Source of the DNA: a virus | Taxonomy: Duplodnaviria > Heunggongvirae > Uroviricota > Caudoviricetes | Virus record (IMG/VR): IMGVR_UViG_2526164669_000027 | Strand: one strand, 5' to 3' | Length of the DNA: 48,145 nt | In this document: positions 40,227-40,642 of the stretch, piece by piece | How the letters are laid out: each line of letters opens with the position of its first letter | How positions within the stretch are numbered: position 1 is the first letter of the stretch | Made by a program: the position numbers and the translations under genes | The notes under the pieces: generated by a model | What the model saw: the letters and a program-made list of their open reading frames with translations, nothing else | Told to the model about the DNA's origin: nothing | Database searches by the model: none

Positions 40227-40299
40227 TTTGCCTGTCTTTTAACCACTTCAGGCTCGGTGGTATACTGGAGTTCTCACACAACCAGTAAGGAAATTACCT
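40227..40299 (+). promoter_or_regulatory. sigma70-type promoter with extended -10 (TGgTATACT) for the gene at 40300
   Basis: TGGTATACT at 40258-40266, then AAGGAAATT RBS and ATG at 40300. Confidence 0.5.
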
Positions 40300-40527
40300 A
40301 TGACTGATACAACTAAATTCAGCGTTGAAACCAAGCTAGACGGCCTTGAAGCATTACTTGGTTTATTGCTGTCGTCCCTTCCCATCCAAGAGCGAATAAA
40401 GCTCGCAGCATCCGGAATGGAGTTAATTAAAAACCTGAAAAGTCAGCCGCAACAGCAGAGGGAGCGAGGACAGGATATGTGTGAATACATCGCTGCCGTT
40501 CTGGATAACTCCATCAACCAGGATTAA
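40300..40527 (+). CDS. hypothetical protein (75 aa), transcribed against the early-right operon
   Basis: Good RBS and promoter; convergent with a 39-aa minus-strand ORF. Confidence 0.5.
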   Translation: MTDTTKFSVETKLDGLEALLGLLLSSLPIQERIKLAASGMELIKNLKSQPQQQRERGQDMCEYIAAVLDNSINQD

Positions 40528-40642
40528 CCGAAAATCCCAAAGCTAAGGCTGTTTTTTCAGCGACAGCCCTTGCCTCCTGAATCTCTTCGTCGGTAAGGGC
40601 TGATATGGCCCCAAGAATGCATTCGATTCGTTCTTCGTTCAT
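40523..40642 (-). CDS. small hypothetical protein (39 aa)
   Basis: MNEERIECILGAISALTDEEIQEARAVAEKTALALGFSV; AAGGAAG RBS; not in the ORF track. Confidence 0.25.

Follow-up and report, generated by a model that had tools for sequence, protein, structure and literature searches.

A counter-oriented 75-residue gene in the early-right operon of a lambdoid Escherichia coli prophage lies behind a putative control element shared with P22 sieB/sas

Why should a small gene with what looks like its own promoter face backwards inside the early operon of a temperate phage, and what controls it? The question is raised by positions 40,227 to 40,642 of a 48,145-nucleotide (nt) stretch of DNA from a tailed phage (Caudoviricetes; IMG/VR record IMGVR_UViG_2526164669_000027), called the window in the following. 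Here an earlier note had read from the letters of the sequence an extended -10 motif (TGgTATACT, 40258-40266), a good ribosome-binding site (RBS) and a plus-strand open reading frame (ORF) of 75 amino acids (aa). All of them are present at these positions, and a consensus scan picks the promoter independently. The claim that the gene is counter-oriented within the early-right operon and converges with the gene in the cro position is also borne out by the gene order, which comprises the repressor gene, the cro-position gene and the genes found in the prophage of E. coli EC11. The locus is not unique and its promoter is not isolated, as had been supposed; instead, it is one copy of a widespread, portable block and hairpin that head about 40 different genes, here called cargo genes. 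We consider it probable that the locus is a lysogen-expressed accessory ('moron') cassette placed on a sieB-type control element, which is silenced by early-right read-through via a sas-like antisense RNA. The features on which this reading is built are as follows.

40230-40261, both strands: conserved 32-nt block GCCTGTCTTTTAACCACTTCAGGCTCGGTGGT, defined by an exact-match survey and a covariance model
40239-40266, plus strand: predicted sigma-70 extended -10 promoter (consensus scan), with the -35 element TTAACC at 40239-40244 and a 16-nt spacer
40258-40259 and 40261-40266, plus strand: TG and -10 hexamer TATACT of this promoter, with the start predicted at about 40273-40276
40263-40287: hairpin TACTGG-(13-nt loop)-CCAGTA, whose 5' arm overlaps the -10 hexamer and whose 3' arm abuts the Shine-Dalgarno (SD) sequence
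40287-40292, plus strand: SD sequence (T)AAGGAA, 8 nt before the ATG at 40300
40300-40527, plus strand: 75-aa cargo gene (ORF), product identical to WP_000132761.1, 'hypothetical protein'
40213-40304, minus strand: predicted sas-like antisense segment, its limits transferred by alignment with P22 sas

The block is found just upstream of sieB in phage lambda (34,396-34,428) and in phage P22 (BK000583, 29,652-29,684), and a covaried block is present upstream of sieB in the Rac prophage of E. coli K-12. The window and P22 blocks are identical at 31 of 32 nt. On the plus strand the block provides the -35 element, the spacer and the TG of the predicted cargo promoter, while on the minus strand it reads ACCAC-CGA-GCCUG-AA-GUGGU-UAAAAGA-CAGGC, which is the core of the 3' domain of the P22 sas RNA. 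In an RNA-seq survey of the small RNAs of P22-infected Salmonella published in 2026, sas was located at P22 nt 11,387-11,513 with the sequence UUCAUCGGCGAUUCUCUUUUUACUCUCUGUAGGGGUGAAUAGAGUUUAUCCGAU-UUCUCGCUGUAGGGGUACACGAGAA-CCACCGAGCCUGACGUGGUUAAAAGACAGGC-ACAAUCUUUACUACCGC, was identified as the antisense RNA of Ranade and Poteete (1993), which shifts translation from SieB to Esc, and was abundant among the small RNAs of the infected cells (PMC13397905). The P22 sas RNA starts opposite the sieB start codon and crosses the SD sequence and the 5' untranslated region (UTR), and its 3' half consists of a hairpin (UUCUCG/CGAGAA) and the block. In the P22 record, the sieB promoter and RNA start are annotated 3' of the block and of the adjoining hairpin TTCTCG/CGAGAA, and thus the block lies outside the sieB mRNA. 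A structure working within the cargo mRNA was therefore rejected, since both the mapped start in P22 and the predicted start in the window are 3' of the block. The window has the features of a sas-type head, namely the block, the adjoining hairpin and a position 5' of a gene opposing an early operon, and the position 5' of a counter-oriented gene recurs in the e14 and Rac prophages, lambda and P22. The predicted antisense segment would carry, in this order, the complement of the start codon, the complement of the SD sequence, the hairpin, the block and a tail of about 17 nt. No minus-strand promoter-like site was found inside the cargo gene by the consensus scan, so the antisense RNA would come from early-right read-through.

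When the segment 40212-40648 was compared by blastn with complete E. coli genomes, matches were obtained in 948 of 5426, of which 3 have the 75-aa ORF; the remaining matched genomes align only from window position 40226 to about 40292, that is, over the promoter and leader. In the e14 prophage of K-12 the segment is located directly upstream of ymfI, a counter-oriented ORF overlapping the convergent ymfJ, and in phage Rac-SA53 it precedes 'rac10', where K-12 Rac has sieB. A resemblance involving 'rac10' that was noticed by eye was discarded, as BLASTP gives it no support. The exact 22-nt core occurs in 12 species-representative Enterobacterales genomes, from the genera Escherichia, Klebsiella, Salmonella, Enterobacter, Atlantibacter, Shimwellia and Edwardsiella. 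Moreover, the block is present in at least 120 IMG/VR contigs, and a 40-nt query retrieved 152 phage records, lambda and P22 among them. A search for diverged blocks with Rac SieB as the query returned near-identical Rac copies only. This distribution shows that P22 is not alone in having the sas scaffold, which is portable, is present in about one-sixth of the complete E. coli genomes and in several genera, and occurs in either early operon. In some phage contigs (L226, and also L249, L036, L090 and L255), two or three blocks, all pointing the same way, are crowded into about 1.4 kb. The copies of L226 are at 2474-2504, 3067-3096 and 3795-3826; one stands before a 75-aa ORF and a degenerate one before a 154-aa ORF that has hydrophobic stretches, while no cargo ORF follows the remaining one. 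An exact enterobacterial block with a typical cargo is also found in a contig assigned to a 'Geobacteraceae' metagenome-assembled genome (L011, DAINBV010000046.1), which is probably mis-binned or contaminating DNA.

On the strand of the early transcript, the block has the layout ACCAC-L1-S2a-L2-GUGGU-(A-rich L3)-S2b. A covariance model built from the variants has its sole match in the window at 40230-40261 on the minus strand (42.5 bits, E 1e-7). The two arms of stem S2 change together among the loci:

GCCUG/CAGGC: window, lambda, P22 and e14
GCCCGG/CCGGGC: K-12 Rac, upstream of sieB
GUGCCG/CGGCAC: contig L144, before the gene for a homolog with 50% identity to the 75-aa protein
GCCGGG/CCCGGC, GCCGGA/UCCGGC, GCCCG/CGGGC and UGCCCG/CGGGCA: IMG/VR contigs

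The fourth pair of S2 in 39 unique blocks is G-C in 19, U-A in 12 and C-G in at least 3, as counted by an anchored parse in Python that mis-registers the subtype ACCAC-CGCC-GCCCG. This parse was used because both MAFFT and the covariance model set the 3'-arm gap at the wrong place. The adjoining hairpin also has strong support: of 102 unique sequences, 75% can form a Watson-Crick stem of 5 bp or longer, compared with 8.8% of shuffled ones, and 23 distinct covarying stem sequences occur across the loci. The compensatory changes in S2 together with the 23 covarying hairpin stems argue for selection for base pairing. In addition, if ACCAC pairs with GUGGU, the block would fold as an H-type pseudoknot, whose loops are of reasonable length when read on the strand of the early transcript. 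The hairpin is probably left out of the cargo mRNA and included in the antisense (early) transcript. None of the Rfam covariance models matches the window between 39000 and 42000 at E <= 1.

The block also seems to have been used as part of a promoter. In 83 of 116 unique elements the GTGGT of the block continues directly into AT-N-Y-T, giving TGgTATNYT. Among these 83 fused variants, -12T, -11A and -10T are invariant and -7T is found in 82, while all four bases occur at position -9, which covaries with the base opposite it in the hairpin. This pattern of conservation fits the signature of a working extended -10 element laid over a stem. Across the elements the ATG follows GTGGT by 35-42 nt and the divergent gene begins 10-25 nt upstream of the block (19 nt in the window), and with both genes so near, no alternative promoter fits. 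As the predicted start, about 7 nt past the -10 hexamer, falls in the loop of the hairpin, the cargo mRNA would lack the 5' arm and its SD sequence would be free. In P22, lambda, Rac and contig L144 the block and hairpin are kept and a separate promoter is located further on; that of L144, TGgTAGAGT, serves the 50%-identical homolog of the 75-aa protein behind its covaried block. Several other roles for the block were tried and rejected. It has no U-tract as an intrinsic terminator would, it fits the consensus of LexA, CRP or DnaA sites or of a leftward promoter poorly, and no reading frame is conserved past it as would be expected of a coding segment.

The cassette belongs to a lambdoid E. 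coli prophage, whose immunity region lies around 40 kb in the window; there it has the following neighbours.

40514-40642, minus strand: 42-aa early-strand ORF (WP_258116069.1) with a strong GGAGG/AAGGA RBS
40649-40858, minus strand: 69-aa gene in the cro position (phrog_4749), heading the early-right operon and divergent from the repressor gene
40895-40923, minus strand: predicted PR-like early-right promoter TTGATA-17-TAACAT (consensus scan), between the cI-like and cro-like genes
40970-41626, plus strand: cI-like repressor of the LexA/S24 type (Pfam HTH_3 and Peptidase_S24, E 1e-22 and 1e-14)
39891-40211, minus strand: 106-aa early-right gene (ORF), annotated in E. coli EC11

In relatives the equivalent cro position is occupied by P22_Cro or YdaS genes. 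The order on the minus strand is the 42-aa ORF (40514-40642), the 106-aa ORF (39891-40211), whose RBS and ATG come 19 nt after the block on the early transcript, a 105-aa ORF and a Rha-like gene. In the near-identical EC11 prophage the same strand runs on to Rha, DnaC-like and DnaB-like genes, and therefore this gene run is taken as the early-right operon.

We propose the following mechanism. In the lysogen, the cI-like repressor would hold the early-right promoter off and the 75-aa protein would be made from its own fused promoter, on an mRNA that begins inside the hairpin loop and leaves the SD sequence free. After induction or infection, early-right transcription would pass cro and the 42-aa ORF and then run antisense over the cargo gene and the head of the cassette. 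Head-on collisions and a stable sas-like RNA would then stop translation of the cargo, sparing the phage its own product; the 5' part of this RNA would pair with the start codon and the SD sequence, and the hairpin and block would confer stability. The earlier suggestion that the locus is a regulatory switch or encodes a lysogen-specific factor agrees with P22 sieB/esc/sas, the only characterised relative, but the switch probably works the other way round from what was implied: by analogy with P22, early-right read-through probably silences the small gene, instead of the early operon being throttled by it.

Several observations weigh against this mechanism. The consensus scan by itself performs at the level of chance, with 8 promoter-like sites per 3.6 kb against 4.9 +/- 2.5 in shuffled sequence. 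The match in the window is nevertheless taken to be above chance because the block is conserved in so many E. coli genomes, and the exact 32-nt block has no match in shuffled sequence. The mapped promoter of P22 sieB is separate and 3' of the block, and the use of the block as a promoter is a prediction. No intrinsic terminator was found by the scan after the cargo gene or the block, and none on the plus strand between 40527 and 40650. The ACCAC/GUGGU stem is invariant and hence offers no covariation test of the pseudoknot; its invariance could equally stem from the role of these letters in the plus-strand -35 element and TG. Wobble pairs favour the early-transcript strand only slightly (9 against 5), and the folding energy of the minus strand is no better than that of shuffles (z = 0.64). 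Furthermore, P22 sas itself may be either a primary or a processed transcript, and a 'defence' label for the cargo is an analogy only, since the cargo proteins are without known functions.

Published transcript data touch the element at a few places. E. coli RNA-seq lists ymfI, which follows the block in e14, with ymfJ as a convergent overlapping transcription unit, and likewise sieB with ydaF, which counts in favour of the proposed mechanism. None of the Cappable-seq and SMRT-Cappable-seq supplements gave a mapped start for ymfI, and these loci are unmentioned in the paper on double-stranded RNA captured with p19. In K-12 Rac, the small RNA KilS (5' UTR of kilR; Bar et al. 2021) lies at 1,418,405-1,418,502 on the minus strand of MG1655. 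It begins about 65 nt past the sieB-associated block on the early-left strand, so that the block has the sieB promoter region on one side and an independent start site for leftward transcription on the other. KilS was rejected as the RNA of the block, because it is a separate transcript starting about 65 nt beyond it. In the searchable open-access literature, the P22 small-RNA paper of 2026 is the only one to print the block sequence in a relevant context, and no description of the element as a family with many cargoes was found in that literature.

The 75-aa ORF, which was annotated by PGAP in E. coli EC11 as WP_000132761.1, has a pairwise ratio of nonsynonymous to synonymous substitution rates (dN/dS) of 0.23-0.41 and is a real gene under purifying selection. 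The homology and structure search that the earlier note had proposed gave homologs at 32-96% identity and no known family or fold. Close homologs (84-96% identity) are found in E. coli only, while an exhaustive profile search reached distant ones of 74-88 aa with 32-61% identity and the same helix pattern. The protein is acidic (isoelectric point 4.8) and soluble, with no transmembrane (TM) segment (maximum 19-residue hydropathy 1.1), and its AlphaFold (AF2) model consists of three helices with a pLDDT of 76. No match was obtained to any Pfam, PHROG, NCBIfam or PADLOC family, and Foldseek found no similar fold in PDB or BFVD; the PADLOC, Pfam and PHROG profiles likewise gave no defence or toxin-antitoxin match for either the 75-aa or the 42-aa protein. 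The 75-aa protein was rejected as a member of the SieB family, as it has no Pfam or NCBIfam match, no TM segment and no internal Esc start and is only 75 aa long, and the SieB proteins form cargo clusters separate from it. From its position and the analogy with SieB, it is most likely a candidate for a prophage-expressed exclusion, defence or host-modulating protein.

The cargo behind the element is freely exchanged. The first ORFs behind it, 45-195 aa long, sort into about 40 clusters without relationship to one another. SieB of both types, YmfI and zinc-ribbon proteins are among them, as are many orphans, and Pfam gave almost no matches for the cargo proteins. Several cargo families are found behind more than one block subtype. 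The limits of the exchange can be seen in a prophage of STEC307 (L002), in which cI and cro are the same as in the window. By blastn, the homology ends at 40266, the last base of the -10 hexamer, and resumes at 40651, the cro stop; the block of L002 is the same, but an 85-aa cargo unrelated to the 75-aa gene lies between the breakpoints, together with another small ORF on the early strand. The exchangeable part of the window is thus delimited as follows.

40267-40650: module comprising the hairpin, leader, 75-aa gene and 42-aa ORF (blastn against L002)

This module is found behind three different cro/repressor pairs. In L002, RefSeq annotates a minus-strand ORF (5429-5620) over the block and the start of the cargo, which is probably a mis-call, and leaves the plus-strand 85-aa cargo (5436-5770) unannotated; this cargo (MRGKIVHVEH...) is conserved in Enterobacter contigs.

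The transcript rather than the protein could be the main product. An RNA running from 40273-40276 into the 42-aa ORF and cro would then resemble lambda oop, and as antisense RNA and transcriptional roadblock it would damp early-right expression and stabilise lysogeny. The arrangement is indeed convergent and overlapping, no terminator-like site lies downstream, and ymfI-ymfJ and sieB-ydaF have been scored as convergent overlapping transcription units in E. coli RNA-seq. However, the 75-aa ORF is under purifying selection with homologs down to 32% identity, and a constant head joined to freely changing cargo and convergent genes ill fits a sequence-specific antisense target. We therefore regard both the RNA as main product and its proposed effect on lysogeny as unlikely, although RNA and protein roles are not mutually exclusive.

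It could also be supposed that the 75-aa protein (plus strand) is an effector and the 42-aa product (minus strand) its lytic-phase antidote, for which SieB/Esc and Tha/Ith are precedents. The earlier note had placed a convergent minus-strand ORF of 39 aa here; the ORF is present but has 42 aa, is convergent with the 75-aa gene and overlaps its 3' end by 14 nt. Its strong RBS, its occurrence in E. coli only and solely where the 75-aa cargo is present, and the co-inheritance of both ORFs behind three different cro genes speak for such a pair. On the other side, its dN/dS is only 0.30-0.57, and it has no homology to any antitoxin in Pfam, PHROG or PADLOC. In one lineage (L351, 201-416, minus strand) its stop codon is lost and the frame reads on for 71 aa antisense through the cargo gene. 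Moreover, the cargo homolog with 50% identity, like other cargo families, faces unrelated early genes that are shared between cargoes, so that cargo-specific partner ORFs were rejected in general. This weakens the idea of an effector and its antidote, since the convergent early-strand genes are not cargo-specific overall, and we doubt that it holds for the window.

Another explanation is that the block is a mere recombination linker for the exchange of lambdoid modules, with no RNA function and an incidental promoter. Mosaic breakpoints do lie exactly at the block, one head is joined to many cargoes, and orphan and tandem copies of the block occur. But neither the compensatory changes in S2 nor the 23 covarying hairpin stems would be expected of a linker; the element belongs to a small RNA that is abundant in P22-infected cells, and the -10 positions are conserved as in a working promoter. 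We consider the linker improbable as the whole explanation, and a linker role can coexist with the RNA and promoter functions. That a chance ORF simply follows a chance promoter match, without function, is hardly credible: promoter-like hexamers are common and the 75-aa protein has no family, but the block, the ORF and the architecture are all conserved.

Some further observations concern the operon in which the cassette lies. The early-right operon is interrupted by an insertion sequence of the IS3 family (37973-39186, minus strand; orfA 108 aa, orfB 295 aa), which truncates the Rha-like gene (39238-39507, minus strand) to 89 aa, against about 235 aa in relatives; the window prophage is probably defective downstream of the cassette. 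The similarity of the 106-aa gene product to phrog_4439 is confined to about its first 28 residues, while in contig L352 (2158-2412, 84 aa) the homology to the window runs through the counterpart of this gene, which suggests a putative mosaic joint within its coding sequence. Further on, the early-right operon of EC11 contains a second counter-oriented insert of two genes, a RelE/ParE toxin and a helix-turn-helix (HTH) protein (L001, 4222-4783, plus strand), and in other relatives (L352, 138-786, plus strand) the counter-oriented insert consists of TumE and an HVO_A0114-like gene, so that several backwards-facing modules can occur in one early-right operon. On the other side of the immunity region, the cI-like gene is followed on the same strand by genes for a 138-aa HTH protein (41730-42146, plus strand; phrog_4739), similar to the CII-like regulator phrog_4836, and for a 123-aa protein (42137-42508, plus strand; phrog_5451). 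A position 3' of the cI-like gene is unusual for a CII-like regulator.

How far, then, does the cassette resemble known systems? The closest is the sieB/esc/sas locus of P22, which, like the window, has a counter-oriented prophage-type gene in an early operon with the block and hairpin immediately 5' of it. The P22 cargo is the 192-aa membrane protein SieB with an internal Esc start, whereas that of the window is an unrelated soluble protein of 75 aa; P22 sieB belongs to the early-left operon and the window cassette to the early-right (cro) operon. In the window the promoter is fused to the block (GGTGGTATACT), while that of P22 is separate and mapped about 30 nt further on, and the P22 antisense RNA has been seen by RNA-seq, while that of the window is predicted from the sequence. 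The control element is thus shared with P22 sieB/sas, and the differences lie in the cargo, in the side of the operon and in the fusion of the promoter. The sieB genes of lambda and K-12 Rac also stand counter-oriented behind a block and hairpin, but with other cargo, on the other operon side and with blocks that lack the TAT of the fused -10 hexamer. The e14 ymfI locus has the same head of fused block, -10 hexamer and hairpin (91% identity over 67 nt) and a small counter-oriented ORF that overlaps the convergent ymfJ; it differs in its unrelated 113-aa cargo and its early-left position, and YmfI is likewise uncharacterised.

The morons of lambdoid phages, such as HK97 gp15 and lambda bor and lom, are extra genes with a promoter of their own, of which the classical ones carry their own terminator. 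The window gene resembles them in being an extra gene, presumed to be expressed in the prophage, placed between two genes that in relatives are direct neighbours or enclose something else. Its promoter is predicted from the extended -10 consensus and from conservation, and it is replaced by another gene in STEC307. It has no terminator-like site and, unlike the classical morons, is tied to a conserved structured antisense element. Short structured antisense RNAs that overlap the end of a gene within or next to an operon are known from lambda oop/cII and IS10 RNA-OUT/RNA-IN, but neither has any sequence relationship to the window element. In the 'noncontiguous operon' of Tha and Ith in Staphylococcus aureus prophages, a nested counter-oriented gene makes immunity and lytic growth mutually exclusive, which works through collisions and a small protein (PMC11087260). 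This system differs from the window in organisms, proteins and polarity and has no conserved RNA element; by analogy, it can be regarded as an independent precedent for counter-oriented switches between lysogeny and lysis.

Taken alone, the locus would be one more hypothetical prophage gene, and it is the control element that holds the interest; it connects the gene with the P22 sieB/sas switch, which dates back some 30 years. As a tentative extension, which we put forward as a possibility rather than as the expected outcome, the block and hairpin may form an unrecognised, widespread family of structured 'sas-like' RNAs that serves as a universal lytic-phase off-switch, acting at a hot spot of lysogen-expressed genes in the temperate phages of Enterobacterales. 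Such a family, whose members may fold as H-type pseudoknots in which the third loop is A-rich, would include the copies in lambda, P22, e14 and Rac. If this is true, the roughly 40 cargo families, to which the three-helix protein of the window belongs, would be a reservoir of exclusion, defence or host-modulating effectors that can be found via the element. If the logic of a gene that is on in the lysogen and silenced by read-through holds, it would provide a sequence handle for collecting candidate exclusion and defence genes, would give testable roles to unexplained K-12 genes such as ymfI, and would explain how prophages escape harm from their own accessory genes.

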